DNA of 64,000 bases from NCBI GenBank assembly GCA_000004985.1, contig GG738920.1, one strand, 5' to 3'. Shown here in pieces: positions 1 to 63,401 of the stretch (positions within the stretch are counted from its first letter, which is position 1; each line of letters begins with the position of its first letter). Source of the DNA: Naegleria gruberi (lineage: Eukaryota). A program made the translations under genes and the position numbers. The notes below the pieces were generated by a model that ran no database searches, had not been told where the DNA came from, and saw only the letters and a list, made by a program, of their open reading frames with translations.

Positions 1-3000
1 AAATTCAGTAGCACTTCTTCCAAATATTTCAGGAGTGTACATTTCTTCTGCCTTCACACCTGGGATAACAAATGAACCGATTGAGGTAGCTCTAGCAATG
101 TAGGTAAATTCGTGAGTGCCTTCCCATAACAATGAGCTAAATGCCTCAACTCTCTCATCTCTAATGTTGTGGTGTTCATACCAAATTGGATTAAACCACC
201 AACACCACCAACCGTTTGATCTACTATTGGTTCCACTTCCACTTACAGTAGCAATATCTGGAGTTCCTTTCAATTCTGGATTGATTGGTTCAAGACCAGC
301 AGGTAAAAAGTCAACTAATGCAACGTGATATCTACGACTGGTATTGGTCATGGTCAACTTGATACGAACCAATTCTCCAGCCTTAAATCTCCAAGTGTTT
401 CTTTCTCTATCAAATGTAACATGAGAAGAATCAGTCACGTGTTCATAAGTTCTTTGAACTTCAAATCCATAATCCAATGCATCAACAAGCAAGTTCTTTG
501 GAGCATATTCCATTCCAATTCTGTAATATAATCTTCCAGGTCCATGCTTGGAAATAGCAAGTGTCTTTTGACCATTCTCTAATAAACTCATTGGAATGCT
601 CAATTGGTTTTCATCCTTGGATCTTCCCTTGAAAACTTGCTCTCCACAATAATCTTCACCTAGCCACATGTTGGCAACAAAATCTGGTGTCACACCTTCG
701 AATACGTTAAAGTATGTATTAAGGGAAAGAAGGATGAAAACATTTTCTTGAGTATTTTCCCATCTACCTTTCTTTCTATGAGCCAGTAAGCCCTTGACAA
801 TCTTTGGAATAATATAATTTTGAGGAGTAATATTAATAAGAGCTTCTAAGCAAATACCATCAGTTCTACGATTGCTGTGCAACATGACATGTTTAGTGGC
901 CATTGCATCACCATAGCTTGTGATAAAGTTTGCTGTTTGAGCAGTTTCATTCACATGCTTATTCAAATGTTCAATGATTTGATTAACAGAAGTAGTGGCT
1001 CTCTTATTATTTGATAAATATATGGCAGTAGCCAACCAAGCTAAATGTTCAAAATTACCTGAAAGTTTGTAAGTTTGATAAAGTTTTTCAGCTAAATTCT
1101 TTGCCTCAGAATCATCTAACAATGCCAAAGCATAGTAGGCATATGCCTTGAGTGATTTGATAGTCTCCTCAGAGTAGTTCTCACAATAACTTTCAATACT
1201 TCTCAATACTGGAACCAATTTTGAGAGAGTGGATTCATTCACTGAATATCCTGCAAGCCTGGCTCTAGCAAGGGAATGACCGACGTGGCATGTAACGTAT
1301 GGACTGATACGATGATCCACTCCATTAAATGACCAGTAGCTGAATCCACCATTTGGATATTGTCTTGTTGATAATTGTCTGAGTCCTTGATTAATATTTT
1401 CATCAAGGTTTTCCTTTGTTGGAAGCTCTTGTAATTTGAAAGCAAGAAGAATATCTTTAAGAGCTAAAATTGATAATAATCTACTAGAAATTTGTTCAGA
1501 GCATGCGAAAGGATAATTGTACAAATAAAGGAAACTGTCAGTGAGTGAAGACAATGCAGTAGAGCTGGTTGAAATCTTGAGACCTCCAAATTGTGTGAAA
1601 ACATCTTGAGGAGCCTTTACAGGTTGGAACACTGAGCTATCACCATCCATTTCACCATAAGTTGCAAATGCTTCAGTTGTGGCTGGAGTAAATACTCTGA
1701 TTTCTTTTTCAACAGCATCAGAGAAGTTTACACCAGAAGTGGCGATAGAGACACCAACTTGGAATCTGGCCACACCCACCCTATCAGTAGTCATGGGGAA
1801 TCTCAATTCAGCCCTTCCTAAAGCTGGTATTCTAATCTTGAGTCCTTTCTTTGAGGTATCCAACAAGTTCAAATTGGTAAAGTTAATAGCAGCATGTACC
1901 TCCAAACTTAATTGGGTTTGATTTTGTAAAACACATGTAAATTCTGCTCTATCGCCAAAGTTCAAGAAACGAGGTAGGGATGGTCTGATTGACAATGGAA
2001 GTTGAGCAATCATAGATGATTCATGAATTCCAAAATTCCAATCTCCCTTAACAGCCACAGCTGTGATTCTGTACTTGGTAAGATTATCAGGAAGTTTAAA
2101 TTTAACAGAGGCCACTCCTTCAGAGTTTGTCTTGTTGGTTGGGCTAAAGATGGCAAGAGGATTGAAATTAGATCTCACTACAATCTTTGGTTGTTTGGAT
2201 AGTTTAGCTCCTCCTCCACCAAATCCACCTACACAACCATCACCACAACATGCACATTGGCAACAAAGGTCGTCACAACAACAGCATTCATTCATACAAT
2301 CTTCAAAACAACAATTAGCGCAAGAACTGCATGCTCTAGCAAAGCGACAACAGTTAGTAGGACTTCGCATTAACGGTAGTTCCTCTTGGAAAACAATACC
2401 ATCATAGCTCTTAACAAAAACATTATTTCTGATGGAATAAGTTTGATAATAGCTGCTGTATTCTCTAACAAATGTATCTAGAGGATTAGCAATGGTGTGG
2501 CCAGTTAATGACAATACAGCTTCATCCACAGCAATGATACAAACTTCACATCCTTCTAAAGGTTTACCAGTTATTGGATCCTTAACAATGACATCAATGC
2601 TAGTTTCGCTTCCAGGTGTCAAATATTCCCTTTCAGGCTTGGATTCAACAGATAAGGTTCTGGAAATCTTTGAAACCTTAATCATACATTCACCACTTGC
2701 AAAAGCAGGTTGTTTTGGTAAATCCTCAAGAACATTACCTATAGCATCAACCCTTGATTCGCAACCAGTAACTTCAGCACTGACGAAAATATTTGGAATA
2801 TGGTCAGAAGTAATGTCAAGTTCAAATTCAATATAGCCAGGCTCACCATCAATTTGAATAGGATGTTGGCTATGTATTCCATGAAGTCTTGTGAATAAAA
2901 CACCTTCACACCTTGTTTCAAAAGGAGATTGAATTAAAATCTTAGCCTTTTCTCCAATTTGATATTCAGTCTTGTCTGGAAGTAGAGTGAGTTGTTTCTT

Positions 3001-5913
3001 TGTAATATTCTTTCCAAGTTTTTGCTCCCTCACAGAAGCACCTGTAATGTACAAGCTTGTTGAAGAGTTATTAGTTTGGCCTGTTTCAGAATCAACAATA
3101 TCAACAGAGAAATAATAGATACCACCATTTCCAAACTTTAAAGGAACGTCAACAGCTTCCTTTCCTGAAGTGAAAACTTCATCAACAATTTCAATAGTTT
3201 CCGAAACAAATTTGTATCCCTTCTTTACCTGTACATTGGTGGTTACTTTCAATTTCATTGGAATACCAGAAACCAATTTTCCATCAATGTCAGAAACAAT
3301 TAGAGAAGCAGTTATTGGAATGTTTGGTTTGGCGAATTGTTTGCTCAACTTGATTCCACAATAATATTTACAAGGGTGAACAAGGAAGGAAGTAGATGAA
3401 GAAATGGTTTGTCTATTGATATCTTGTACAGTTGCCTCCACTGAGATGGTAACTGGTGTCTTTACCAAACGATCACTTTCATCAAAGGCAATAGCAACTT
3501 GATGCTCACCATTAACATCTGTAGTACCTTCAAAGCTTGTAACATCAAGAGCTGATCCACTTGGGAATAAATAATTTGCTACAGAGGAACCTCCAAAATT
3601 GTATGAGGATTGGTTTGGAGGAACATAACTACTACTGGTTTGTTTGATAGAATAAGAGCATTTAGCTCCTGAGATTCCTCCTCCACTATAGTAAGTAGCA
3701 TTAGTGGTACAAAGAGCAGAACCACCAACAATGTAGTTTCCAGCAGGTACTGAAGATTTAGATTTGAACTCTGGTGTTCTAAATTCTTGAACTTGGAATT
3801 GATGGAAGGCAGAGAACCCATCTAATGAGATGGAGTGACTTCCCAAGTTGGCATTATCAGGAACTTTGAATTGAATATCAAAAGTACCATCTTCACTCAG
3901 AGTTACATTACCAGAATGATACTTTTGACCTCTCGCATCCAAGACTGTGAAAGTAGAACTAGTTTTTGGTATTTCAATCTTTTCAACATTGTCAATCAAA
4001 TTGAAGTTTCTTACATAACCCTTGATGGAAACTGTTTCATTAGGCTTGTAAAGTCCTCTATCGTTGAACATGCAAGCAACAGTTTGTGGTTGATATGGAT
4101 TGTAATAGTGATAAATATCTGGAATGAAGCATGTATCTTGACCTTGAGTGGCAATAGCCTTCACATATGCTCCATATTGTTGTTCATGACCAATATTACG
4201 TATACAACCAATACCAGTTGATGAGTTAGGTGTATTTGGGGAATGATTGTTGAATTTGAAGGTTACATTATCCTTAATAATACTTCCATCCAACAATGAG
4301 TTAACCCAATAGTATACACTTGATGAACTTGTGTCAAAAACACAATCAACAGAAATTTTGGTTGCTTGAATCCAAGATGTGAAACCAGGTCTTTGATTCC
4401 ACTCACCCTTCCAGCTACTTTTTTCTGGCTCAACAATAACAAGCAATTGACCAATATTTTCAGATGGATACTGAAGATAGGAATGAAGATTGATTTCAGT
4501 CTCCACTGGTTCGTCAATTTCTCCCTTTGTTGAAATGACACTATCACAAACCAATTTACCAGGATATTGAATAGTTGAATAGGTGTTATGATGAAGAATA
4601 GATGAAGAATACATATTTGGTTGGACTTGATAAACACTCAAATGTACAGAATCCAAATTTACAGTAACAATTGGGTAGGTTGGAGTTGGATTCAAAGTTG
4701 GATCTAAAACAATCACACCAGTCTTGAATGCTTGGAGTGATTGACGTGCACTTTTAACAGTAAATTCTACAGTGGTGTCTGGAAGGATTTGACCCCAAAC
4801 ATCAACCAAATTCTTCAAGAAAACCTTATAAGTAGTTCTTCCTTTGATTTTACCAGAAACACTGATAGTGCATCCGTATGGATTTAATTCCATTCTTTCT
4901 ACTGGTGGTGAAACAGTTACCATACTTTCTGTTAATTTTTCCAAATCAATATTTGTTGTAAAATTCAATCCAAAAGCCTGCATTGGTAGCTCACCACCGT
5001 GTTTTCTTTCAAACTTGAAAGCTGGATAATTCTTGACTTGATTGCTTACATCCTTTTGTGTTGGTAATGGACCTTCTGACCCAGTAACTCCACTCTTGAC
5101 AACTACTTGAGAGGAGAGACCAAGTTTGTGACTAGTGGTAAACCACAAATGTCTTCCATCTGGAGCATGTTTGAGTTTTTGTTCGTAAAACGAATGAATG
5201 CTCCTATCTCTCTTCTCCAATTCATAATCTTTCAAAACTTTAACAATGTGCTCCTCAACGAGAGGATTCGAAGACTTTCCATCATGAATCAAATTGGCAC
5301 TTTGATTATCGATAGTAATAAATTTGATCACTTCACTTGGATTAATTTCTTGATCAAACTCACAATAGTAAATTGGTACTTCGTTGAGAGGATGAGCTTG
5401 TTGGTTTGGGAAAAATTGCTTTACATATAATCTTGGAGTTTCAAAACTAAATGTCAAATCTTCCTTCAAAGTTCCTCCAATTTCTGATTTGGTACCCTTC
5501 TTGACAGTAACTGTATACTTGGTAGACATGTCAAATCTGTAATTAGCTTCATAAATTAAAGTTTTTGTTCCCAACCACTTGAATTTTCCTCCCTTCTTTG
5601 GGAGTGGTGAAATTTCTACTGGAATATTATGACTTTCTACTTCTGCAACACCACTCACAGGAACCATTGGTTGAGAGAAGGTAATAGTCACAGATGGAAC
5701 TGATCTATCCAAAACACCTTCTGGTGAATAACGAAGCACACTCAAATCAGATCCTAACAACTTTGCCTCCTCTTCAATCAATTCCTTTGGTTTTTCCAAA
5801 CTTATTTCAGGTGGAAATGGAACACTATTAATCTCGGCAGTAATTGGTGCCTTCAATGATTTTTCTCTAATGAGAACAATAATTAGATAGAATTTTCCGA
5901 TTATTATTATCAT
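1..5913 (-). CDS. Alpha-2-macroglobulin-family thioester-containing protein. The N-terminal 1971 codons lie in the window and the gene continues past the 5' edge. It has a signal-peptide-like N-terminus (MIIIIGKFYLIIVLI...).
   Basis: Hand translation of the minus strand from the ATG at 5913..5911 is open to position 1. Both ends are in frame (5913 = 3 x 1971). It shows the A2M/bait-region signature (IVVRSNFNPLAIF...LPDNLTKYRITAVAV...PRFLNFGDRAEF). It has a thioester-like motif, PFACSEQ (Cys codon about 1501-1503), and a TED-like helical region. The C-terminus has a receptor-binding-like motif (LVDFLPAGLEPINPEL). The ORF track misses it because it runs off the window edge. Confidence 0.7.
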   Translation of the reverse strand, partial: MIIIIGKFYLIIVLIREKSLKAPITAEINSVPFPPEISLEKPKELIEEEAKLLGSDLSVLRYSPEGVLDRSVPSVTITFSQPMVPVSGVAEVESHNIPVEISPLPKKGGKFKWLGTKTLIYEANYRFDMSTKYTVTVKKGTKSEIGGTLKEDLTFSFETPRLYVKQFFPNQQAHPLNEVPIYYCEFDQEINPSEVIKFITIDNQSANLIHDGKSSNPLVEEHIVKVLKDYELEKRDRSIHSFYEQKLKHAPDGRHLWFTTSHKLGLSSQVVVKSGVTGSEGPLPTQKDVSNQVKNYPAFKFERKHGGELPMQAFGLNFTTNIDLEKLTESMVTVSPPVERMELNPYGCTISVSGKIKGRTTYKVFLKNLVDVWGQILPDTTVEFTVKSARQSLQAFKTGVIVLDPTLNPTPTYPIVTVNLDSVHLSVYQVQPNMYSSSILHHNTYSTIQYPGKLVCDSVISTKGEIDEPVETEINLHSYLQYPSENIGQLLVIVEPEKSSWKGEWNQRPGFTSWIQATKISVDCVFDTSSSSVYYWVNSLLDGSIIKDNVTFKFNNHSPNTPNSSTGIGCIRNIGHEQQYGAYVKAIATQGQDTCFIPDIYHYYNPYQPQTVACMFNDRGLYKPNETVSIKGYVRNFNLIDNVEKIEIPKTSSTFTVLDARGQKYHSGNVTLSEDGTFDIQFKVPDNANLGSHSISLDGFSAFHQFQVQEFRTPEFKSKSSVPAGNYIVGGSALCTTNATYYSGGGISGAKCSYSIKQTSSSYVPPNQSSYNFGGSSVANYLFPSGSALDVTSFEGTTDVNGEHQVAIAFDESDRLVKTPVTISVEATVQDINRQTISSSTSFLVHPCKYYCGIKLSKQFAKPNIPITASLIVSDIDGKLVSGIPMKLKVTTNVQVKKGYKFVSETIEIVDEVFTSGKEAVDVPLKFGNGGIYYFSVDIVDSETGQTNNSSTSLYITGASVREQKLGKNITKKQLTLLPDKTEYQIGEKAKILIQSPFETRCEGVLFTRLHGIHSQHPIQIDGEPGYIEFELDITSDHIPNIFVSAEVTGCESRVDAIGNVLEDLPKQPAFASGECMIKVSKISRTLSVESKPEREYLTPGSETSIDVIVKDPITGKPLEGCEVCIIAVDEAVLSLTGHTIANPLDTFVREYSSYYQTYSIRNNVFVKSYDGIVFQEELPLMRSPTNCCRFARACSSCANCCFEDCMNECCCCDDLCCQCACCGDGCVGGFGGGGAKLSKQPKIVVRSNFNPLAIFSPTNKTNSEGVASVKFKLPDNLTKYRITAVAVKGDWNFGIHESSMIAQLPLSIRPSLPRFLNFGDRAEFTCVLQNQTQLSLEVHAAINFTNLNLLDTSKKGLKIRIPALGRAELRFPMTTDRVGVARFQVGVSIATSGVNFSDAVEKEIRVFTPATTEAFATYGEMDGDSSVFQPVKAPQDVFTQFGGLKISTSSTALSSLTDSFLYLYNYPFACSEQISSRLLSILALKDILLAFKLQELPTKENLDENINQGLRQLSTRQYPNGGFSYWSFNGVDHRISPYVTCHVGHSLARARLAGYSVNESTLSKLVPVLRSIESYCENYSEETIKSLKAYAYYALALLDDSEAKNLAEKLYQTYKLSGNFEHLAWLATAIYLSNNKRATTSVNQIIEHLNKHVNETAQTANFITSYGDAMATKHVMLHSNRRTDGICLEALINITPQNYIIPKIVKGLLAHRKKGRWENTQENVFILLSLNTYFNVFEGVTPDFVANMWLGEDYCGEQVFKGRSKDENQLSIPMSLLENGQKTLAISKHGPGRLYYRIGMEYAPKNLLVDALDYGFEVQRTYEHVTDSSHVTFDRERNTWRFKAGELVRIKLTMTNTSRRYHVALVDFLPAGLEPINPELKGTPDIATVSGSGTNSRSNGWWCWWFNPIWYEHHNIRDERVEAFSSLLWEGTHEFTYIARATSIGSFVIPGVKAEEMYTPEIFGRSATEF

Positions 5914-6218: not shown

Positions 6219-6439
6219 TTTTTTCTGATGATTTTTGTTTAAAAAATTAAGCTAGCAGCTTTTTAACAATTTTCTTGCAAGATCTCTGAACTCATTGTTA
6301 CCAGAACTGTTGAGGGGTTCAACGAAAAGGAAGTGACGAAGCGTTGGCCAATATGATTGGATATTCCGATAATTTTGAGAGGTTACCTTTGGATACATGC
6401 TATGGTTGAAGGAAACACTGTTAAAAAAGTATGAATCAT

Positions 6440-7861
6440 CTATTTAATTGAGATATATAGGAGTGTGGTGAATGACAGCAAGATGAAAGCTAATCCAATT
6501 AATTTTCTCAATCCTTTTGTATTATCAAGAGAAGGTGTTGACAACTTGGTATTAGTTTCGGCTAATGGAGTAGTGGATACTTCTTTGATTTCCTTTGGAT
6601 GCTCCTCTTGTTCAATAATATTATTATCCCAAATTAGAAGATCCGTTAATTGTTTCATTTCTTTGATATATTTGGCTCCTTGGTTGCCAATAATATTAAC
6701 ACTAATATCAAGTGCGTTTAATTGTGACATTTCACTTATGTATTTGGCTCCTTTCTCATCAATGTGATTTTCACTTATATCGAGCTCAGTTAATTTCTCG
6801 AGTTTGGATATATATTTGGCTCCCTCTCCCCTAATATTATTTTTCCATAAAGTGAGAATTGTTAATTGTTTCATATTACCAATGTATTTGGCTCCTTCCT
6901 CTCCAATATTATTGTCACTAACATCAAGATTAGTTAATTGTTTCATCTCAGAAATGTATTTTGCTCCATTGTCACCAATATTATTGCTACTGATATCGAT
7001 TTCAGTTAGTTTATCAAGGCCAGTTAAGAATTTGACTCCTTCTGCTGTTAATTCATTCCTCCAAATGTTAATACCAGTCAATTGTTTCATTTTTCCTAAG
7101 AATTTGGCCCCCTCATCTCCTATATTATTGTCATGAATTCGTAGATAGGTTAATTGATTCATACCACTAATATATTTGGTACTATCATCATATAGCATAT
7201 TACTACTGATATTAAGATCAGTCAATTTATCCAGTTTGGAAATGTGTTTGATACCTTCTGAGCTAATACCACAATAAAAGATACAAAGATCTAACAATTG
7301 TGTCATTTCTCCTATGAGTTTGGCTCCCTCATCTCCAATACTATTTTGCCCAATATTAAGATGGGTCAATTGCTTCATTTCAACAATGTACTTTACCCCA
7401 TCCAATCCAATATTATTTTCACTAACATTAAGATGAGTCAATTGTTTCATTCCACTAATATATTTTACTCCTTCATTTCCAATATTATTACCCAACATAT
7501 TGAGAATAGCCAAATACTGCATTTCACTTATGTATTTAGCTCCCTCCTCATCGATATTATTTCCATCAATATCCAATTGAGTTAATTGTTTCAGCAAACC
7601 AAGTTTTTTACAATCAAAAAGAGGATCACTTTGCTCTACTTGTAGAGTTGTAACACGTTCCAATAATTGGCCTTGTATTTTCTGGTAACTTTTAATGGAT
7701 AGTGAAAGTTTTGATCTTTCCGATATGACCTTGAACCACTGTTTCGAAACCAATACACAATTGAGTACTATGGACATGTTTACAAATGTTAAATCTTCGT
7801 GAAGGAAAGAAAATATTTCCTCTAGAATGTCATCAGGAAAGTAGACTTGCAGTTTATTCAT
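6440..7861 (-). CDS. F-box-like protein with ribonuclease-inhibitor-type leucine-rich repeats (about 16 x 24-aa NNIGDEGAKYIxxMKQLT units) and a C-terminal hydrophobic anchor.
   Basis: The ORF at 6440..7954 uses a TTG as 'M'. The first ATG is at 7861 (MNKLQVYFPDDILEEIFSFL, F-box-like). There are regular 72-nt/24-aa LRR units. The C-terminus reads LIGLAFILLSFTTLLYISIK. Confidence 0.6.
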   Translation of the reverse strand: MNKLQVYFPDDILEEIFSFLHEDLTFVNMSIVLNCVLVSKQWFKVISERSKLSLSIKSYQKIQGQLLERVTTLQVEQSDPLFDCKKLGLLKQLTQLDIDGNNIDEEGAKYISEMQYLAILNMLGNNIGNEGVKYISGMKQLTHLNVSENNIGLDGVKYIVEMKQLTHLNIGQNSIGDEGAKLIGEMTQLLDLCIFYCGISSEGIKHISKLDKLTDLNISSNMLYDDSTKYISGMNQLTYLRIHDNNIGDEGAKFLGKMKQLTGINIWRNELTAEGVKFLTGLDKLTEIDISSNNIGDNGAKYISEMKQLTNLDVSDNNIGEEGAKYIGNMKQLTILTLWKNNIRGEGAKYISKLEKLTELDISENHIDEKGAKYISEMSQLNALDISVNIIGNQGAKYIKEMKQLTDLLIWDNNIIEQEEHPKEIKEVSTTPLAETNTKLSTPSLDNTKGLRKLIGLAFILLSFTTLLYISIK

Positions 7862-23994: not shown

Positions 23995-25721
23995 TTATTG
24001 GAAGAGAGAAGAGTGGATCTTTTCATTATTGAGATACCAAACTTGATCTGGAATGTTGGAAGCCATTTCTGCCTTCTTGAGTTCCATATATTTTCTTCCT
24101 TGTTCGGTAGATAATAATTCAATCATGCCCTTCATGTATGATAATTCAATTTGAGCATCTGTTGATTTGATATAATTTTGAACTTCAATGTTAGCTTTGG
24201 TTGTTTCATAAGTGACTTGAGAATCAATCTTGGCTTCTTCAACCTTTTCAACTTGCAAGTTTTCATTTTCAATACCGATGAGTTCTTCACGTAATTTTTG
24301 AATTTCAGCTTCTGCCTTAAGTTGTTCCTTTTGAGCTTCTCTGGAGGCTTCAGTTTCCATCTTGTTACAGACAATTCGCATATTAGATTTGATAGATTGG
24401 TTCAAGAGATCATTGATTTGGTTATTAACAGGTGAGATTGATTTAACGTCGATTTCAGAGACTAATAATTTGATTTCATCAAAATAAATACCAAGAACGG
24501 ACTTTTCTTCGTTTCCAACATTGACTTTGGATTCATTGAAAAGGTGCTTTCGAATTAATGATACAGTTCCGCTGTGGAATTCTTCGAATGTGAAAAGAGC
24601 AGCAAGTTCTCTAACTCTTGACATGAGGGTAGCACAAATATATCCAATAAAGTCAAGCATTCTGAACATGACATGTGAATCTGATTCATCAACCAAAAAT
24701 TCCCACTTGTAAGTTAACAAAATGCTGAGTTCAGCATTGTCCTTTGTACTGACACGGAAAGAATCAGAAACGAAATCTGGACCTCTCATAATTTTGGCGG
24801 CCTTAATTTGTTTGATTTGTTTTGGCTTACCAGCAGACAACCAGAGACACTTAACGTGTTCCTCAGGTGAGAGAATGTATGAGGTTGGTCCATTGATAAT
24901 TCTTTCATTTCTTTCAGCATCCAAAACACAAACTACTTGTTTCTTTTCAAGACGAATAACAGTAGCCATATAATCCGAGCTAGTAGGTAATCCAAGAGCA
25001 GTCTTTTCCATATCAGTGTATTGCTTATAGTACAATTCTTCAGTTGCTTTCAAAATATAACATGCAGGTCCCTTAACTAACTTCTTTTCGGAAGTTTCAG
25101 TATCTTGAACATAAATACCTTCATTTTCATTGATCATGATGGCATTAACAGTTTTCATAACTTCAGTATCCTTATCTGGAATAAATCTGGCTGGTCCTTT
25201 AATTTGATAAACATCACCGGCCTAATTTAACAATAAAATAAATTGCTCAAATGATTACTAAGAATACAAACCTTCAAATCAACTTCCTTTCCATCAATTT
25301 CTATCTTCTTATCAACCAAACATCTCAATCTCAAAGCTTGGTTTGGTTTCAAAATATGAACATCAGTAATAGCTTCAATGACTTCATTTCTATGCAATGC
25401 CAAAGCCTTTGGTCCTTCAATAACACGACGTTCACCCATCAAGTTTCTTTCTTCCTCATAATCATATGGATTTTTAATAATAACATATTGTCCTTCCTAT
25501 TATCAGTGTAATTATTTAACAACAGCGATGATAATACAATGATGATGATCAACATGTTGTATTGTTGTGTGGTCACTTACCTTGATGATTGACAAATTTT
25601 GTGTATTAATGATGGCTTCATTGGCTCTCAAAGCAATACGTTTTGGACCAATTTCAATCTTGACAACACCCGAATCATTATCAAGAATGTGTACATAAGT
25701 ATTTGGATTTAGAACGTTCAT
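23995..25721 (-). CDS. MVP: Major vault protein homologue, unusually short at about 530 aa. Three exons: 25721..25581, 25496..25272 and 25221..23995.
   Basis: Exon 1 (MNVLNPNTYVHILDNDSGVVKIEIGPK) matches the MVP N-terminus (YIHVLDQNSNVSRVEVGPK). Exon 2 carries NQALRLR and exon 3 carries ENEGIYVQD. The shoulder motif LSAGKPKQ...RGPDFVSD...LTYKWEF corresponds to LSAGRPKR...GPDFFTD...LAYNWHF. The introns are GTAAGT (84 nt) and GTTTGT (50 nt). All three junctions are in phase 0. Confidence 0.65.
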
Positions 25722-55290: not shown

Positions 55291-55488
55291 TCTCTGATCG
55301 CCAATACTAAACCCAACTTCAGGTGATGATGCAGAAGTTTCCTTGCTGGTTTTCCTTTTGCATTTTTTAAAAAAAGATTAAAAATTAAATTTGTTAAAAT
55401 GTAACGGTTAAATTTTAACAACAACAATTTTAGGTAAATGACATATCTGACTCATTCCAATTTTTAACAATTCTACTGTGAAATTGTT

Positions 55489-58023
55489 TTATTGCTTACA
55501 CCATTGATTAAAAGATTGCTCCTCCCTTCCGAATAATCCATGATCAAATCCATATTTGATAACTCTTTCAATTATTTCGGAAAATGTGCTGTCATCAGAG
55601 TAGTGCTCTAATTCACTCCATAACATTTCAAAGTTGTCCTTTCCAACGATGATTTGTTTCGATACAATGGGTATTAAATCTTTCATTTCGTGTTGGTGAG
55701 CTTTCTTGATGAGTGGAATTTGATGAATTGAGGGAACATAGTTCATGAATCCATAACAATATTGAATGAGATATTTCATCTCTGGACCATATTCTTCCAG
55801 TTCAATGGACCAATTTCCTTCGAATAGAGTTTCAAAGTAGACACTTCTCGAGATGAGAACTGTTTTGTGGCAATGAATTTTCTGATTTCCTACTAGGAAA
55901 CAAATATCACTGGTTGAGTGGTCATTGAATAGGTCCATTAGTGGTGATTTGGAAATATTGTTTGGCTTTTCTTCCCAAGTTACTGGTTTGATAGTTTTTC
56001 TCTTGATGATTAATCTCAAATACTTGTCAACTCTTTCATCAGTTTCAATAAAGAATTCGTATCCAGGTTCTGATGCCTGACTTCCCATGAAATCCAAACA
56101 ATAGTCCTTAATTTTCATCAAAGGAGAAGCTGCTGATGTTGATGAAAAGAATGAAGCATCTCTTGTGAGATAGCTTTCAATAGATTCCAGAATATCCAAA
56201 ACATTATCGAATCCAATTTTTGTAATCACTGATTGAATAATCATTGATTTCATGTAAATTAAATCTCCATGAGCTTGACCAAGTAAAAAGAGAATGCAAA
56301 GACTTTCGTCTGTATCCATATTCGATAATGTGGAATGTTTTTGATAGAGAATTTGATCCAAAATTCTCTGAACTATAGAGCATTCCTTCTCGTTCAAAGA
56401 GCTAATGAAATTATTATTCGAAATAACATTCTTATAGAAATTAGGAGTCATTCGTGCAAGAAGTGGTCTAAAGGCAATCAATCTATCAAATCTATCCATT
56501 TCAAGTTTCCGTACAGAAATATTATCTTCAAAGTGCCAATAATTTACTGCATCCGAAGCAAAATCTCTATTCATATGATCCACCAATGCCTGCTTTCTCA
56601 ATTCCTCCAAATCTATATTCTTCTTTTTGCAAATATTCAATATAATAGAGTCGACAGAAGCTTTGGCATGGAGCAGCAATTTGATAATGTTCCAATGCTC
56701 AAGAGTGCAAGCAATTAAAAGAGGTGTCTGTTATTATTGTGGTTGTTATGGTTGTGGTTGTTTGGAGAAGAGATGCAGTTGATGATGAAGACGGTTAATA
56801 GCGATGTTAAATTGTGTGGCAACTTACTTTCTGTGTTGTAGTGAGCTGTGCGTCAGTGTTGCTGAGATACTTACATACTGTGAAGTTGTGGAAATGTGTA
56901 AAAAGAACCAAATATTACAAATGCACTTACTATCTAAAAAAGTAAAGTCTAGACTGTTGGTGATGCGAAACTTACAAGCTGAAAAATGATAAGAACTTTA
57001 GTTTAGAGATTCCAAAGGAGCAACATACCATATTCATCTAAATTCCCAAAACCTTTTAACCATCAAACTTCATTGCTGGAATACTTACTGTCTGAGGCAA
57101 GTCAGTTAACACACAATATTTCAATATTGGTACTTACTTCCTATGTGTTGTGTAAGAATCTTTAAACTGTATCCAATACTTACATGCTGGCAAGAGTGTG
57201 AATTAATTGTTGCTCCAACCTGAATTACTACTTACCCACTATTAAAATAATGATTGATTATCCATTCGTTCCTAGCTGGTTAAAATAATCTACACTTACA
57301 TCGAACTATTCCATTTAGGATAAACTACATTAGTTATGGTGCCTACTTACAAACTGGAACAATGTGTGAAAATAATGGATTGGAATCTCTCTTAATACTT
57401 ACCCCTTGATTAACGTCTGTGCGATTACAATCTAACAACATTCTAACCAATTCTTCATTTCCTCTTTGACAAGAGACACATAGAGGTGTCTTTTCAAATG
57501 CGTTTGGAAATTTGATATCCAAAGTGTTTACTTACTTCCTATGAACGTGTCAATGAAATTTTAACTTCTGAATCACTTACTTCCTACAAGCACATAAGTG
57601 ACACAAGTGTTTCATCATGATCATCACAATAACTGATTAATAATTATGATTAGAATTAATTCACTTACCATCTAGATGATATTCAAGCTTTTACAACATT
57701 TTCGTTATCTAAATAACTTACAAACTATTTCAGAATGAGTTGACAAAATTCTTCTCAATACTACTTACTCCAATATTTGTATTTAAATGAGGAATCTTGA
57801 GTAAATTATCAACGAGTACTTCCTGTTCCTGTTCACAGGCCCAATATAATAATGTCTTATCCTGTAAATTCTTCAGTGGTTTATTAATCATCCATCTATC
57901 CTCCACAAGAGATGGCGGAAGTTTGCAATTCTCTAAAACCGATTCAATCATCATTAGACTATCTTCCCTCTGTGTCTCAGAAGCAGAAGTTGTGAACGTG
58001 GCCTGTAAAGTGGAGCTGTTCAT
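55489..58023 (-). CDS. Ankyrin-repeat plus BTB/POZ protein with an unusual architecture. Clear exons are 58023..57769 (exon 1), 57489..57403 (an ANK repeat) and 56727..55489 (BTB). Numerous candidate micro-exons lie between them.
   Basis: Exon 1 has the ATG at 58023 and reads ...TLLYWACEQEQEVLVDNLLKIPHLNTNIG. The 87-nt exon reads TPLCVSCQRGNEELVRMLLDCNRTDVNQG. The last exon begins TPLLIACTLEHWNIIKLLLHAKA and ends in a BTB domain (DICFLVGNQKIHCHKTVLISRSVYFETLFEGNW). All three exons are in phase 0. Between them there are 17 GTAAGT/GTATGT donors. Confidence 0.5.
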
Positions 58024-58460
58024 TTTGTTTTTTTGGAGCTTTAACGAGCGAGATGGCCACTTTCACTTTTTGTGGCGCGAGGAAAAAGATGAATTCAATG
58101 CCAACAACAGCAACCTTGAAGATGTGATAAGGGCGCTGTATATTGAGACAATTTCAAGTTGAGGAAATTTCCTTATGAAGAGGTGTGAATAATGGTCTGT
58201 TGGAATGAGGGTATGAACTCTCACAAAGTTTTCCTGACGTGGCAGTAAGCTGTGTGAAAAAAATGGTCTGATTAGAAGCCAGTAAACAGAATTAATTTTG
58301 CATTTTACTGTTTATTTTAGATACTGTTTAACTATTGACCTCTTCAATTAGCAAATGGTGTTGCTCCACTATCCAGAGTCAAAATATATTCTTCAGAATC
58401 AAGATGACTCAGAAATCAACGCACGAAAGTACAATCTCTACAAATATAAGCAAAATTATT

Positions 58461-58599: not shown

Positions 58600-61500
58600 T
58601 TATTGATTCAAATGCTTTAGTGCATCAAAGCCTATAACTGCAAGAAAACCAGAACCTACCAATGCTGGAATGACTGTATAAATATACATGTGATAATAGG
58701 CAATCACAAGTGGCCAACCAATCCATATAATAGTAATTGGCATTAGTATTAATTGTCCTAAAATTCCCAAATTTTTACAAAATCTTCCACAAGACTTGAG
58801 TAACCCAACGTAAATATCTGTTAAAATACTCATTCCTACTGAAGCATTGAAATAGGATCTGTATGCATGTATACTTTCCAGTGAAACAAAACCATACCAG
58901 AATACACAGTATCCCCAAGCAATAATAAATAACAAGATATTGATCCAATAGAATATTCCTGACTCTGCTATCAATACAAAAGACAATAACCAAAACACCC
59001 AACCTAACACAAAATCTTGAATGTAGAAGGTATAAACATGTAAAATAAATACATAGTAAAGAATTGGAGAGATGTTGTAAAGGTTACTAACAAGTGATGA
59101 AGACCACCCACCAATACTACCAATGCTCATTACAGTTTTACAAACAAGTACTCTTATATCAAAATAGAAAGGACTGAATGCAACTGAAAATCCATAGAGA
59201 ATTATTCCCACAGAGCTAAGAACAGAAGCAATACCAAGGAATACACTTGTTGCGTACTTCTTTCCATAAAAACTTCTATAGTTCCACAGTTGGAAGTCCC
59301 TATCACCCCACCATCTATACCCTAAGAATGGGAAAACATCCATTAGGTTGAAGAGTTTTTCAGTTAGGGAAACCAACAACATGAATAGGTTGATTGGAAT
59401 TAACAGTACCAAGAACTCAATTCTATCCCATGTCATATCACTTTCTATTCCTTCAACGTGTGAGAAGAGGCTAATGAGATAATAGAACGGATAAAGAACC
59501 AATCCCAAGAGCTTGTATCTAATGAAGAAAAGCTTGTAGATGTGTTCTATGACATGTTGTGTTTCAGCCTTGACAATATGATGGAAACCAGCTTTGTAGT
59601 CATCATTGACAGCATCCTCAAAAGTGTACTGCTTGTATGAGTAACGACTCTTTTTTTCTAGATATCTCTTGATATACTCATTTCTATTCTCAGAATCTGA
59701 AGCAGAGAAGGCCTTCTTGAAAACAGATGTGAAATCTTCATTCTTATATGATCCAATAGCACTGTAGTAAGCTTCATTCAAGTTGATATTATTGTAATAG
59801 TGGTAAGAGTTATAATTATTGGTATTGTTATACTTGGCTTGGAACTTTTTGTCAATCAAATTTGCCTTCTTATCAATATCGAGATACAATTGCCAAAGGA
59901 AGGAATCCTGTCTTGACAATTCGTGCCAATGTTTACAGACACGATCAAAGCTTGCTGCATTTTCTTCAGGGGTGAGGTAAGTCAAAATTTCAAAGAACAT
60001 ATCACTTGGTAATATCTCACCATTATCCTCACTTGTGTTTTTGGTTTTTGATTTGGTGGTTGAGAATGGTTTTGTTTTCATGAACGCCATTAAATGCTTA
60101 ATACATGCAACTGTGAAGAAATACAATCTCTTGACAGTGTAAGGGAATTGATAAACAAATGTAAGATTAATAAATAAAGCTGCAAGGCAAATGATATCCA
60201 AAATAGCACTCTTGAATTCAATCCACAATGTTCTTCTAACACCTTCCTTTAGCATCAAGTATCTGTACACAACGAATGGTATTCTCCAGAACATTACCAA
60301 TAGAGCAATACCAAATACAAGAGTCAGCAAATCAACAAGTGTCTTGGCAATTAAAACTCTAAGTTCTCTTCTTCTTTCTTCATCTCTGTTCTTCCACTGT
60401 TCATAGAGGAAAAGATATTTGAACATAAAGTAAACTCTATATGGAATAACAATACAAGTACATAGAGAAATTATAACAAGTGGAATATCAATGATTAATT
60501 GCAATGCCTGATCTCTAATAAATTCTCTATATCCTCTCTTAGATTTCTTCTTTGAAAGGAAGTGATAAAGCTCAACATTTCTGTAAACAGACAACACAAC
60601 TACCAATGTGAGTAGCATGTATGGTACATCAAGTATAATTTGACTAAGATGGTATCTAATAATTCCTCTTCTTCCCTTAGCTGTTTCTTCGATCCATGCT
60701 GATTTCAGTGCATTTGGAATTCTCCATAAAAGAAGTGGAATAAGAGCTATGTGAATTATGTCGAGAATGAGTTCGTAAAATTCCAAAAGAATGGAATAGT
60801 GAGCTTCTGATAGCTTTCCTGAAACATAAGCAGCAGTAATGATATTTACAACTCGCTTCGATCTCCAGGATACCAATAGCAAGGCTGAACATAAAATGCA
60901 AGGAATATCTAGGACCGTTAGGAAAGCGTTAGTTCCCAATAGGATTAATCGTTTCTTATAGTCTGTTTCGTTTGCTAAGGCTCTTAATATATGTTTGATT
61001 CTCCAAACAGTGAGGGATGAAAGAAGGAATAAAATAATTATAGGAATGTCTTTAACTAGATTCCAAAAAACGAGAGCTATTTGTTTGTGGACTTCCAATG
61101 CTTCTCTGATAGCAAATGTAGATTTGAAAACAGGATGTGTCTTGAGAACAGCAACTAAATCCTTGATTCTATAAACTGTGAGAACAATAATTGCAGAAAA
61201 TACAGTACAAATCAAATCCAAAGGAATTGATAAAGCTTGAGAAACAATTACCTTGGCGGCCAATTTCTTTGGTTCCTTCTGCCCAACAAGAGACTTCATA
61301 GTTGTGACAGTAATTGGAATACGGTAGACTGTGAATGTTACCAAATAAGTGCAGATAATTAATGGGATTTGGAGAGGAAGCAAATAAAGTTGCTTTAACA
61401 CCTTTCCTCTAAAGAAGGTGAATAATTCTCTCTGCTTACCCAACTCTTTTTCTTCCTTCTTTGCCTTTTTGTATTTTCTAAATAAGAGGAAGATAGTAAA

Positions 61501-63401
61501 GATGTGCATGATGGAGAGTATCATTAAAACTAGAGAAATAGTAAATGGGATATCTATCATGGCATCCAAAAATTGTTGAAGAGCTAATTTTCTTCTCTTT
61601 TCTGCAGTTTCATATTCTTCTTTATGGAATACCCAAATCTTGAGAATAATTACTGGTAAACGCCACATTGACAGCAAACCCAACAAAATAAAAGGTAAAT
61701 CTTTCAAGACTGCAAAAGCTTCAGAAATAATAATAAATTGATAGAGAGTGTCTTCTGTTCTTATTCTCTTAATAGTTGTACCTACTCTGTAAAGAGTTGG
61801 AACGACAAGGACTACCATTGCAGTTATTGCTACCACATCAAGAATACTTTGTACAAATTCTTCCATGGCCTTGTTTCTCATACTTCCCGCCTTTTCTTCA
61901 TTGGTAATGATGGTAAGATAGTGTAGAATAATTCTTGGAATTCTCCACAATGACATAATTCCTAAACAAATAAAAGCAATATCAATAATCCAATTTTTGA
62001 AAATATCCCTAATAAGTTCTCTTCTCTGAATAAAAATTTCATTTCCAACAACCTCTACCTTATCAAGTTCATCGCTATCACTATTTGAAAAGAATTTCTC
62101 ATCATAAAAGACATCAATAAATATGGAAGAGTAAAGATGGGAAGCTCTCCAAAAGGTAACAAATATTGGAACACATAAAACTATATGCATAAAATCCAAT
62201 ACCATTTGAGAGAACATGTACAAGCTAGTTGAATGGAAGTATAAGAAATTACCCTTCTCAAAGAGCTTCTTTTGTTCGGATCTAGTAATTTCCCATCTGT
62301 ATCTGGTTACAAATAATGTAATGAATGCCAATAATGAAGGCAAATCAAGGACCAGACAAATAAATTGTTCGAATGTGATTACTCTCATAGATTTAGTTCT
62401 CTTTTCATCTCTATATTGTTGAATTATTGGAATAAATCTATAAATGGTGATTGAAAGACAAAGACCTAGAGCAATAAATGGCATGTCAATAAGTACTTCT
62501 ACACAATGTGAGAAACAGTAAATAGCTCTGTCAAACCCTTCAGCTGGTTGTTCTTTGAATCCTTTGATAAATCCCTTAATTCTATAAAATCCAATAATAT
62601 TAAATAGAATACTCAAAGCATATGCTGGTATTTCCATAAGAATATAGCATCCATTTCTGAAAAATAGTTCGTGTGTCCATTTTTGGCTCCAAACATGAGG
62701 AATTCTCCACATGGTAACTGCAATCAATAACTGATAATTCAAGTTAAAATATTTAAAAGTCAAACAATAATACATACACAAAATGGCAAGCATAAATAAT
62801 CTAACACTGCTTTAACAGTATAATCAGCCATTAAATCAGTAAATGCAGATAATGTTTGAGATTTGTATCCTTGTTTTAAAAAGTATATGAATCTGACAGG
62901 ATTTACCAACATTACAATAGAAAATAAATGTTTAGGCAAACGTATTTGGAATTCACCCCAATCAGAGAAGATATCTACATTACTATTACGATAGCTTCTT
63001 CCAATCTTGTCATCCCACACAATGAAAGCTCTAATTGACATGGCCAACATGGACAAGAAGGTGACTGTCAATGAAATCATCATACTCCAAAAACCTGTAG
63101 AATTTTCCGAAATGTAAAGAGCATAAGTTTCATAGAATGCAAATATTGGATACAAAACAATGGATGGTACTGCAAGTGTAACGATCGGATACATGACTGG
63201 AAACATTAAATAATAGATCAACAATACACCATTATTAAAGTCTGAGTATAAACGCTTTCTACTTCCATAATTATGTGAAATATCCAATGCCAATGTGAGT
63301 AATAATAATGCTGGTGAATAAAAGAGGCATGATACAAAATCAATTACTATTAACCCCAATTTGAGGGCTATTCTCAGTAGAGTTACCACTAACAACTCCA
63401 T
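58600..63401 (-). CDS. Very large polytopic membrane protein (about 1584 aa) with an embedded F-box domain and about 12 internal helix-D[IL]P...[WY]R[IV]P repeats. Two exons: 63401..62778 and 62730..58600, with a 47-nt GTATGT...CAG intron.
   Basis: The two track ORFs are in different frames and join across a 47-nt intron as ...DYLCLPFC|LLIAVTMWRIPHVW. The F-box reads EILPSDMFFEILTYLTPEENAASFDRVCKHWHELSRQDSFLW. There are repeated TM-plus-WRIP motifs (LWRIPRIILHYL, MWRLPVIILKIW, LWRIPNALKSAW, FWRIPFVVYRYL ...). ATG at 63401. Confidence 0.55.

Follow-up and report, generated by a model that had tools for sequence, protein, structure and literature searches.

A predicted run of one-codon exons in an ankyrin-BTB gene of Naegleria gruberi and its possible growth by duplication of intron-plus-codon units

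The stretch analysed here (hereafter the window) comprises 64,000 nucleotides (nt) of Naegleria gruberi contig GG738920.1 (assembly GCA_000004985.1), and our subject is a minus-strand gene within it (58023-55489), for which 18 exons, 1632 coding nt and a product of 544 amino acids are predicted, the protein being composed of three ankyrin (ANK) repeats and a BTB domain. The last exon matches the Pfam profile BTB (PF00651, 44.5 bits, E = 2e-11), the spliced N-terminus scores 64.7 bits against Ank_2 (cut-off 27.3), and the gene likely encodes a Cullin-3 substrate adaptor. Within it, the region 56728-57768 reads as two chains of exons of 3-9 nt (micro-exons) set between short introns, and judging by its sequence we are fairly confident that it is a genuine section of a protein-coding gene. 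The predicted layout, in the order of transcription, is the following:

57769..58023, minus strand: exon 1, ATG at 58023, 85 codons, ending ...KTLLYWACEQEQEVLVDNLLKIPHLNTNIG (its end is the first ANK repeat without hairpin tip)
57490..57768, minus strand: loop-1 chain, 279 nt, five introns and four 3-nt exons
57725-57768 (44 nt), 57672-57721 (50), 57584-57668 (85), 57539-57580 (42) and 57490-57535 (46), minus strand: loop-1 introns
57722..57724, minus strand: micro-exon TTT (F)
57669..57671, minus strand: micro-exon ATG (M)
57581..57583, minus strand: micro-exon GAA (E)
57536..57538, minus strand: micro-exon GAA (E)
57403..57489, minus strand: 87-nt exon, encoding TPLCVSCQRGNEELVRMLLDCNRTDVNQG
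56728..57402, minus strand: loop-2 chain, 675 nt, twelve introns and eleven exons of 3-9 nt
57354-57402 (49 nt), 57306-57350 (45), 57239-57299 (61), 57187-57235 (49), 57141-57183 (43) and 57092-57137 (46), minus strand: loop-2 introns
57038-57088 (51), 56979-57028 (50, GTATGT), 56934-56975 (42), 56878-56930 (53), 56831-56874 (44) and 56728-56827 (100), minus strand: loop-2 introns, continued
57351..57353, minus strand: micro-exon TTT (F)
57300..57305, minus strand: micro-exon TTCGAT (FD)
57236..57238, minus strand: micro-exon TGG (W)
57184..57186, minus strand: micro-exon CAT (H)
57138..57140, minus strand: micro-exon GAA (E)
57089..57091, minus strand: micro-exon ACA (T)
57029..57037, minus strand: micro-exon ATGAATATG (MNM)
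56976..56978, minus strand: micro-exon CTT (L)
56931..56933, minus strand: micro-exon ATA (I)
56875..56877, minus strand: micro-exon TAT (Y)
56828..56830, minus strand: micro-exon AAA (K)
55489..56727, minus strand: last exon, 1236 nt, opening TPLLIACTLEHWNIIKLLL... (TPLLIAC), stop codon 55489-55491

The last exon encodes the third ANK repeat, the BTB domain and, between them, a helical region, and the 87-nt exon corresponds to one ANK repeat without hairpin tip, its counterpart in the homologues being their first ANK repeat. The 17 introns, every one of them phase 0, measure 42-100 nt (median 49; 15 of them 42-61 nt, the other two 85 and 100 nt) and are bordered by GT...AG (17/17), with GTAAGT donors in 5/5 and TAG (four) or AAG (one) acceptors in loop 1. 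All exons are multiples of 3 nt (3n), micro-exons make up 54 of the 1632 coding nt, there is no stop among the 18 micro-exon codons, and the retention of any single intron would lead to a frameshift or a stop. The 6-nt (FD) and 9-nt (MNM) exons may be two and three one-codon exons, respectively, fused after precise intron loss, and loss of a micro-exon may have fused neighbouring introns into those of 85 and 100 nt (the latter, about twice the usual unit length, possibly representing two fused units). As a separate observation, the 100-nt final intron ends in a 15-nt tandem repeat (56729-56762, 2.3 copies, ...aaccacaaccataacaaccacaataataacag).

When every minus-strand GTA[A/T]GT between 57800 and 56700 is listed, 17 donors are obtained in 57768-56728:

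57768, 57721, 57668, 57580, 57535, 57402, 57350, 57299 and 57235, minus strand: GTAAGT donors
57183, 57137, 57088, 57028 (GTATGT), 56975, 56930, 56874 and 56827, minus strand: donors, continued

A preliminary description of the window had reported 17 GTAAGT donors spaced by roughly 50 nt, each preceded by YAG and 3, 6 or 9 nt. The number and the strand were right, although one of the 17 is GTATGT (16 GTAAGT), and the spacing is 45-64 nt with the exception of one 88-nt step and of one 133-nt step across the 87-nt ANK exon; an AG lies upstream by exactly 3 nt (13 donors), 6 nt (1) or 9 nt (1) in 15 cases, with triplets identical to those listed there, the remaining two donors being the ones that directly follow exon 1 and the 87-nt exon. 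That the spacers are multiples of 3 free of stops (15/15 in the window), that the intervening sequences of 42-100 nt are unrelated to one another (mean pairwise score of the intron interiors against shuffled ones, z = 0.05; best pair equalled in 42% of shuffles) and that the frame is kept whether the internal sites are used or skipped (the introns being phase 0 and skipping in frame) was borne out in full. Its statement that the chain is not a tandem repeat describes today's window sequence, in which Tandem Repeats Finder (TRF) recognised no array, but such chains do arise as repeats of an intron with a codon in two of the relatives described below.

The clustering is far from what composition would predict, as 16 of the 26 minus-strand GTAAGT in the 64 kb fall within this 1-kb interval, the expectation being ~0.34 per kb per strand and the remainder of the window lying at or under it. 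The composite motif AGNNNGTAAGT has 14 matches in the window, of which 13 are inside the interval, a total attained in 0/100 shuffles (expectation 1.45 +/- 1.16 per whole window). Beyond the interval, the window holds the single remaining match of this motif, and no other cluster of at least three sites was found in the ~100 kb of Naegleria DNA formed by the window, L001, L002, L004 (contigs introduced below) and the homologous loci L126-L129, where only chance two-site pairs occur outside the genes of the family. On both strands the interval is devoid of any other open reading frame (ORF) of at least 62 amino acids, and an Rfam scan of 55300-58400 gave no family (one chance small RNA match, E = 0.31) and no small nucleolar RNA (snoRNA) within the chain introns that could make the gene a snoRNA host; introns of 42-61 nt are of insufficient length for a snoRNA.

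As a reference for ordinary introns we took the gene for the major vault protein (MVP), in which two were confirmed:

23998-25721, minus strand: MVP gene
~25492-25579, minus strand: MVP intron 1, 88 nt, GTAAGT...TAG
~25220-25271, minus strand: MVP intron 2, 52 nt, GTTTGT...TAG

Further candidate introns, bridging long ORFs of the window, measure 46-74 nt and in part have GTATGT donors. Since the chain introns match these and the MVP ones in size and signals, the units of the chain are taken to be ordinary Naegleria introns; their last 15 nt show a mild pyrimidine excess (0.55 vs 0.47). The donors are more uniform in the window chain (16/17 GTAAGT) than in ordinary introns, where GTAAGT, GTATGT and GTTTGT are mixed, and this uniformity may compensate for the absent exonic context, an idea to which we give little weight because the chain of N. 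lovaniensis is less uniform.

A word-indexed protein search with the last exon gives no match, and an exhaustive phmmer search retrieves 108 homologues, headed by N. lovaniensis C9374_008811 and C9374_005517 and then by a cluster including N. fowleri FDP41_012859, N. gruberi NAEGRDRAFT_65352 being a more distant member. Six homologous loci (two of N. lovaniensis, one of N. fowleri and three metagenome contigs) bear such a chain in the same loop, from the repeat end '...(I/V)D(V/L)NK..' to the following 'SPL/TPL', as short GTAnGT...AG introns with exons of 3-6 nt between them (exon borders are marked by slashes):

L126, N. lovaniensis C9374_008811: DVNKSTT/R/AK/SPLQIAC
L127, N. lovaniensis C9374_005517: DVNKGS/D/D/G/L/I/V/YSPLYIAC
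L128, N. fowleri FDP41_012859: DVNKGL/D/E/G/L/I/S/NSPLYIAC
L129, metagenome: DLNKG/F/E/Y/K/Y/C/N/F/K/VSPLKIA, ten introns of 34-44 nt
L132, metagenome: DVNKSG/Y/Y/Y/Y/Q/TPLYIAC
L131, metagenome: the contig start falls within the chain

In an alignment of the spliced N-termini these chains coincide with loop 2 of the window gene. The GTAnGT...AG form is present in 44/44 introns of the six loops analysed by script and also in 6/6 of L132, the spacers are 3n in 41/41 cases (seven loops fully read), and the copy number among paralogues is 2, 5, 6, 9 and 4+11. The 37 chain introns pooled across loci exceed shuffles in mutual similarity only marginally (z = 2.4), which, together with the lack of dispersed clusters in the ~100 kb, upholds the earlier view that they do not form an introner family.

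The most informative comparison is that of L127 and L128, which are syntenic orthologues (neighbours DCP2, SCI1 and mTOR common to both) with ~80% DNA identity in the flanking exons. All seven donors, all seven acceptors and the six exact 3-nt spacings are retained, and the encoded residues (D, D/E, G, L, I, V/S) are identical in four of six positions, with one further D/E pair, whereas the intron interiors are as dissimilar as shuffled sequences (z -1.5 to +1.0) and differ in length (e.g. 68 vs 166 nt, 93 vs 64 nt). As unused relics would decay, the persistence of sites and spacings amid randomised interiors argues that the internal sites are in use; moreover, the leucine is written TTG in one species and CTT in the other, and its preservation across a two-base change, which a constraint on splice strength alone leaves unexplained, argues that the triplets are translated. 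Both inferences, from which we extend to splicing in vivo, are supported by this pair of genomes, and with the same loop carrying chains in relatives they favour the micro-exon reading offered in the preliminary description.

At the protein level, both chains of the window gene sit at the tips of ANK beta-hairpin loops, immediately before a TPL motif, and the spliced loops are predicted to read NIG-FMEE-TPL and NQG-FFDWHETMNMLIYK-TPL. In the family, successive TPL/SPL (or TLL) motifs lie 29-31 residues apart if the micro-exons are omitted and 33-43 apart if they are counted, and the window protein reaches 64.7 bits against Ank_2 when they are included vs 48.3 bits when they are left out. The included and skipped forms predict the following strings:

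Window, loop 1, included: ACAAATATTGGA-TTTATGGAAGAA-ACACCTCTATGT
Window, loop 2, included: GTTAATCAAGGG-TTTTTCGATTGGCATGAAACAATGAATATGCTTATATATAAA-ACACCTCTTTTA
Window, skip junctions: AATATTGGA joined to ACACCTCTATGT, and GTTAATCAAGGG joined to ACACCTCTTTTA
N. fowleri, included: GTCAATAAGGGATTG-GATGAAGGATTGATCTCG-AATTCTCCTCTCTAT
N. fowleri, skip junction: AATAAGGGATTG joined to AATTCTCCTCTC (as a single string, GTCAATAAGGGATTGAATTCTCCTCTCTAT)
N. lovaniensis, included: GTCAACAAGGGATCT-GATGATGGACTTATCGTT-TATTCTCCTCTC

Taken together, we hold it to be probable that 4 + 11 consecutive exons of 3-9 nt encode the tips of two ANK hairpins, and that the chain in which they stand came about through duplication of an intron together with a codon. 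With respect to splicing, we propose that every intron, equipped with a strong GTAAGT donor and a YAG/AAG acceptor of its own, would be excised by the ordinary spliceosome through intron definition. U1 small nuclear ribonucleoprotein (snRNP) pairs with donor positions -3 to +6, and since a 3-nt exon is too short to accommodate the 3'-splice-site factors and U1 snRNP together, the introns would most likely be removed successively. Each step would thereby put one codon on the end of the growing exon, abutting the next GTAAGT, so that the chain would behave as a codon-adding ratchet, and the order of removal is probably sequential. Splicing of an upstream donor to an internal AG places the triplet at the end of the 5' exon, and earlier removal of the downstream intron places it at the start of the 3' exon; only the direct joining of the outer exons omits the triplets. 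Because AG is separated from the following GT by only 3 nt, the mRNA is identical whether the interval is removed stepwise or the micro-exons are included. The stepwise removal of two introns of about 280 and 672 nt, formerly set against the micro-exon chain, thus comes close in its sizes (279 and 675 nt) but is no true alternative.

As for the origin, the starting point may have been an ancestral phase-0 intron lying before TPL/SPL, from which repeated tandem duplication (with occasional loss) of a unit consisting of one short intron and its adjacent codon would have built the chain, growing and shrinking in the manner of a minisatellite in separate lineages, in a loop that tolerated extra residues. 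This scheme is supported by the relatives: in L132 the six introns are 64-95% mutually identical and four successive exons all read TAT, and in L131 adjacent introns are ~80-90% identical, near-alike introns and repeated codons that point to a duplication unit of a short intron plus one codon. L129 retains faint traces of duplication (one pair with 15/17 nt in common), and the arrays of N. fowleri/N. lovaniensis and of the window retain none. The window array would then be an old one, in which the interiors have drifted to randomness and selection has held the splice signals, the 3n spacing and the codons. Furthermore, the additional loop-1 chain of the window gene accompanies an additional ANK exon, which suggests that a block of chain and ANK exon was itself duplicated.

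Several observations weigh against this interpretation. The claim that the micro-exons restore canonical ANK spacing is correct for loop 1 (29 residues + FMEE = 33, exactly canonical) and fails for loop 2, where all 14 residues give 29 + 14 = 43, ten beyond the canonical 33; in the four other genes the Pfam ANK profiles score the skipped form 2-5 bits higher. We found no transcript, expressed sequence tag or protein record of the spliced form, exact look-ups of both spliced and skipped proteins of the window gene, N. fowleri and N. lovaniensis found none of them present, and the Logan contig bearing the N. fowleri gene (L130) is genomic, not cDNA. Branch-point motifs (YTRAY/YTNAY) are not enriched over shuffled interiors, a comparison made with no Naegleria consensus at hand. 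Moreover, the conservation test consists of one orthologous pair, and the origin of the window array is read from its relatives, its own sequence bearing no trace of duplication.

Against this background, one may ask whether the internal sites are idle, so that the 279 and 675 nt each leave as one long intron and the GTAAGT/YAG pairs are inert minisatellite relics. In agreement with this, the GenBank model for N. fowleri (XP_044565784.1; L128 3001-5159) takes out the whole 527 nt as one intron and joins DVNKGL straight to NSPLYIAC, the frame survives skipping, and ANK profiles accept shorter loops, slightly favouring these in 4/5 genes. The models for N. lovaniensis, however, disagree with it and with each other, XP_044544988.1 (L126 3001-4658) reading through two introns to produce a 39-residue loop insert and XP_044547994.1 (L127 3001-5066) forming a mosaic of intron fragments; being mutually incompatible (skipped, read through, mosaic), the three are predictions and not evidence, and all of them are probably wrong in the ANK loop. 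Idle sites are furthermore difficult to reconcile with the persistence of sites, 3-nt spacings and residues (TTG/CTT leucine included) between N. fowleri and N. lovaniensis amid randomised interiors, with spacers that are 3n throughout seven loops, and with intron lengths of 279-675 nt, far above the 46-88 nt of ordinary introns in the window, and we regard them as very unlikely. Still less credence is given to a decaying or untranscribed locus whose pattern is without present function: the lack of transcript evidence and of a close orthologue in the protein collection (word-indexed search) would fit it, but all three large exons have open reading frames, good scores are obtained for both the BTB and the ANK domain, the family is conserved in at least three Naegleria species, and 34/34 splice signals are intact with 0 stops in the 18 micro-exon codons, which makes it extremely improbable.

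Two other possibilities accept the micro-exons and differ in their use or their origin. The triplets could be cassette exons included in variable subsets, giving proteins with diverse hairpin loops at the usual binding surface of ANK repeats, as in the micro-exon genes (MEGs) of schistosomes (PMC10526429). Any subset keeps the frame, loop 2 is over-long with 14 residues (about 5 of the 14 would reach the canonical length), the copy number varies among paralogues (2, 5, 6, 9, 4+11) and aromatic and hydrophobic side chains, such as typify binding hot-spots, abound among the micro-exon residues. The ordered conservation of residues between N. fowleri and N. lovaniensis fits constitutive inclusion equally well, though, exon skipping is generally rare where introns are short and intron definition applies, and the near-uniform strong GTAAGT donors speak for efficient, unregulated use, so that variable inclusion appears unlikely to us, though not implausible. 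The chain could also have been assembled by repeated independent insertion of introner-like elements, or by reverse splicing beside an existing intron, and the mutual dissimilarity of the 17 introns of the window and the fact that its micro-exon residues resemble an ordinary complex peptide more than a repeated codon would agree with such an origin. Neighbouring introns that are 64-95% identical and the codon TAT occurring four times in L132/L131 are nevertheless to be expected under tandem duplication, the ~100 kb of Naegleria sequence contain no similar element elsewhere, the cross-locus excess of similarity is only marginal (z = 2.4) and the exact one-codon spacing would go unexplained; serial insertion is accordingly granted a very small chance. 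Translated one-codon exons multiplied by intron-plus-codon duplication are, in our opinion, what best accounts for the family.

In comparison with known systems, the structure belongs to established kinds (micro-exons, and intron gain by tandem duplication), and what is new is the run of one-codon exons built from intron-plus-codon units, for which no new category is needed. In agreement with the preliminary description, neither runs of one-codon exons nor intron-plus-codon arrays turned up in our literature searches, for Naegleria or for any other organism (full-text literature, subscription journals being outside its scope). The MEGs of schistosomes and other flatworms (exons of 3-81 bp; PMC10526429) likewise contain runs of consecutive symmetric 3n micro-exons of the same phase, any subset of which is in frame, and are poorly handled by standard annotation; however, their coding sequence is mostly micro-exonic, their introns extend up to 5 kb and their products are small secreted proteins of parasites, whereas the Naegleria gene is micro-exonic in 54/1632 nt, nearly all in single codons, has 15/17 introns of 42-61 nt and, in an amoeba that is free-living, encodes an ANK-BTB protein of intracellular type, with no sign of alternative use. 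Examples of single 3-nt exons come from Drosophila homothorax and from human RPS24 and MAP4K5 (PMC7392893, PMC12686416, PMC8632122) and show that spliceosomes can include a 3-nt exon, but these are isolated exons between long introns, are often alternative and require specific enhancers, and none stands in a run of 4-11.

Recursive splicing of long introns in Drosophila and vertebrates resembles the proposed process in its stepwise removal, in the 5' splice site found at the new exon end and in the GTAAGT that follows YAG (PMC5126111). At recursive ratchet points, however, AG and GT abut, the exon has zero length, nothing is left in the mRNA and the introns measure tens of kb (PMC5126111), whereas in the Naegleria chains AG and GT are 3-9 nt apart, a codon would be added per step and the interval is <0.7 kb. 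In fungal stwintrons, consecutive splicing reactions also clear one intervening region, but the inner intron splits a splice signal of the outer one with nothing between them, unlike the Naegleria introns, which have complete signals and coding triplets between. Intron gain by tandem genomic duplication (the AGGT model, Hellsten et al. 2011, potato RdRp and Drosophila cases; PMC3265369, PMC4974935, PMC2891723) shares the local creation of introns without foreign DNA; there, an AGGT-bearing exonic segment is duplicated, one copy becomes an intron and the mRNA is unchanged, whereas here an existing intron and its neighbouring codon would be duplicated, in an event that adds an intron, a one-codon exon and a residue and is repeatable like a minisatellite. 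Introners (Micromonas, fungi, dinoflagellates) similarly produce bursts of numerous new short introns, but are dispersed, mutually similar and transposon-like and affect many genes, while the Naegleria introns are confined to one loop of one gene family.

We also scanned metagenome contigs for the chain pattern, and most of the matches proved to be CRISPR arrays and microsatellites. Rejected were CRISPR arrays with a repeat containing TAGGGAGTAAGT, namely L012 (Ga0209668_10004689, 1-3200), whose 37-nt repeat GTTTCAATCCCTAATAGGGAGTAAGTGAAATTGCAAT holds TAG-GGA-GTAAGT and so mimics the pattern, and the contigs L015, L075, L076 and L111 (period ~70 nt), which look like the array of L012, as well as termite-gut contigs with (AAGT)n microsatellites; this mimicry calls for caution in genome-wide scans that use the YAG-NNN-GTAAGT motif. 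Only four candidates appear to be real eukaryotic chains. In L007 (Ga0307507_10005984, minus strand ~5900-4560, GC content 45%), at least 20 consecutive 3-nt spacers, each between ...ACAG and GTAAGT and 19/20 ending in T, lie downstream of the ordinary exons of a GTPase-like gene, in units of ~60-68 nt that are diverged copies with a branch-like CTGAC/CTAAC motif; L101 (Ga0193742_1019491, minus strand ~3200-1400) contains ~28 tandem intron-like units of ~53 nt, the triplets of which vary, and after them four units that are unique; in L092 (WNEZ01390701.1) the spacers include AAT, GAT and CTT three times each; and in L115 (Ga0137359_10011542, 6319-6570 of the reverse complement) there are four units, their interiors being unrelated. 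These candidates suggest that the phenomenon may extend past one amoeba.

With regard to its setting, the window is densely packed with genes of long ORFs and few introns, and its other proteins are typical of eukaryotes (MVP, P450, OSCA/RSN1 channel, F-box, LRR, DUF4116); the MVP ORF shares 80% identity with N. lovaniensis C9374_007799, and contigs of the metagenome run ERR1078381 match it at 100%. The densely set long ORFs and the ANK/BTB content would also fit a giant virus, a reading that was rejected in view of the eukaryotic genes (MVP, P450, OSCA-like channel) and of the Naegleria matches. Contigs of 97-100% identity are present in this run (L001-L005, PRJEB11402), and the matches of a neighbouring 528-amino-acid gene are contigs of this single metagenome, without useful flank. 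The upstream neighbour (58600-62793, minus strand) encodes a 1397-amino-acid protein with an F-box (E = 4e-7) and many transmembrane-like segments in which a 'WRIP / YRIP' motif recurs (MWRIPHVW, LWRIPRII, MWRLPVII, VYRIPITV, LLWRIPNAL, MFWRIPFVV), an unusual repeat architecture. Published Naegleria genomes have means of 1.7-2 exons per gene and of ~800-900 bp per exon (PMC8296547), and by this measure a gene of 18 exons, 15 of them of 3-9 nt, is an extreme outlier (~2 exons per gene; PMC8296547).

Going further, one might tentatively suppose, though we are rather doubtful of it, that duplication of an intron with its codon is an undescribed, recurrent route of intron gain and loop lengthening in several lineages (the Naegleria ANK-BTB genes, and the soil and rhizosphere eukaryotes of L007, L101 and L092, with 20-28 units), subsets of the micro-exons in Naegleria perhaps diversifying the hairpin of a Cullin-3 adaptor. 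If cDNA confirms the predicted structure, the chain would rank with the longest runs of one-codon exons known and would offer a natural system for studying how the spliceosome handles exons too short for two-sided binding (order of removal, re-splicing, site strength). It would likewise document a route of intron gain by intron-plus-codon duplication, with young, intermediate and old stages in one gene family, and it would mean that the GenBank models of this family are wrong in three ways in the human pathogen N. fowleri and in N. lovaniensis, and that gene finders miss such structures. For the biology of the family itself, the diversification of loops in ubiquitin-ligase adaptors would become a testable possibility.

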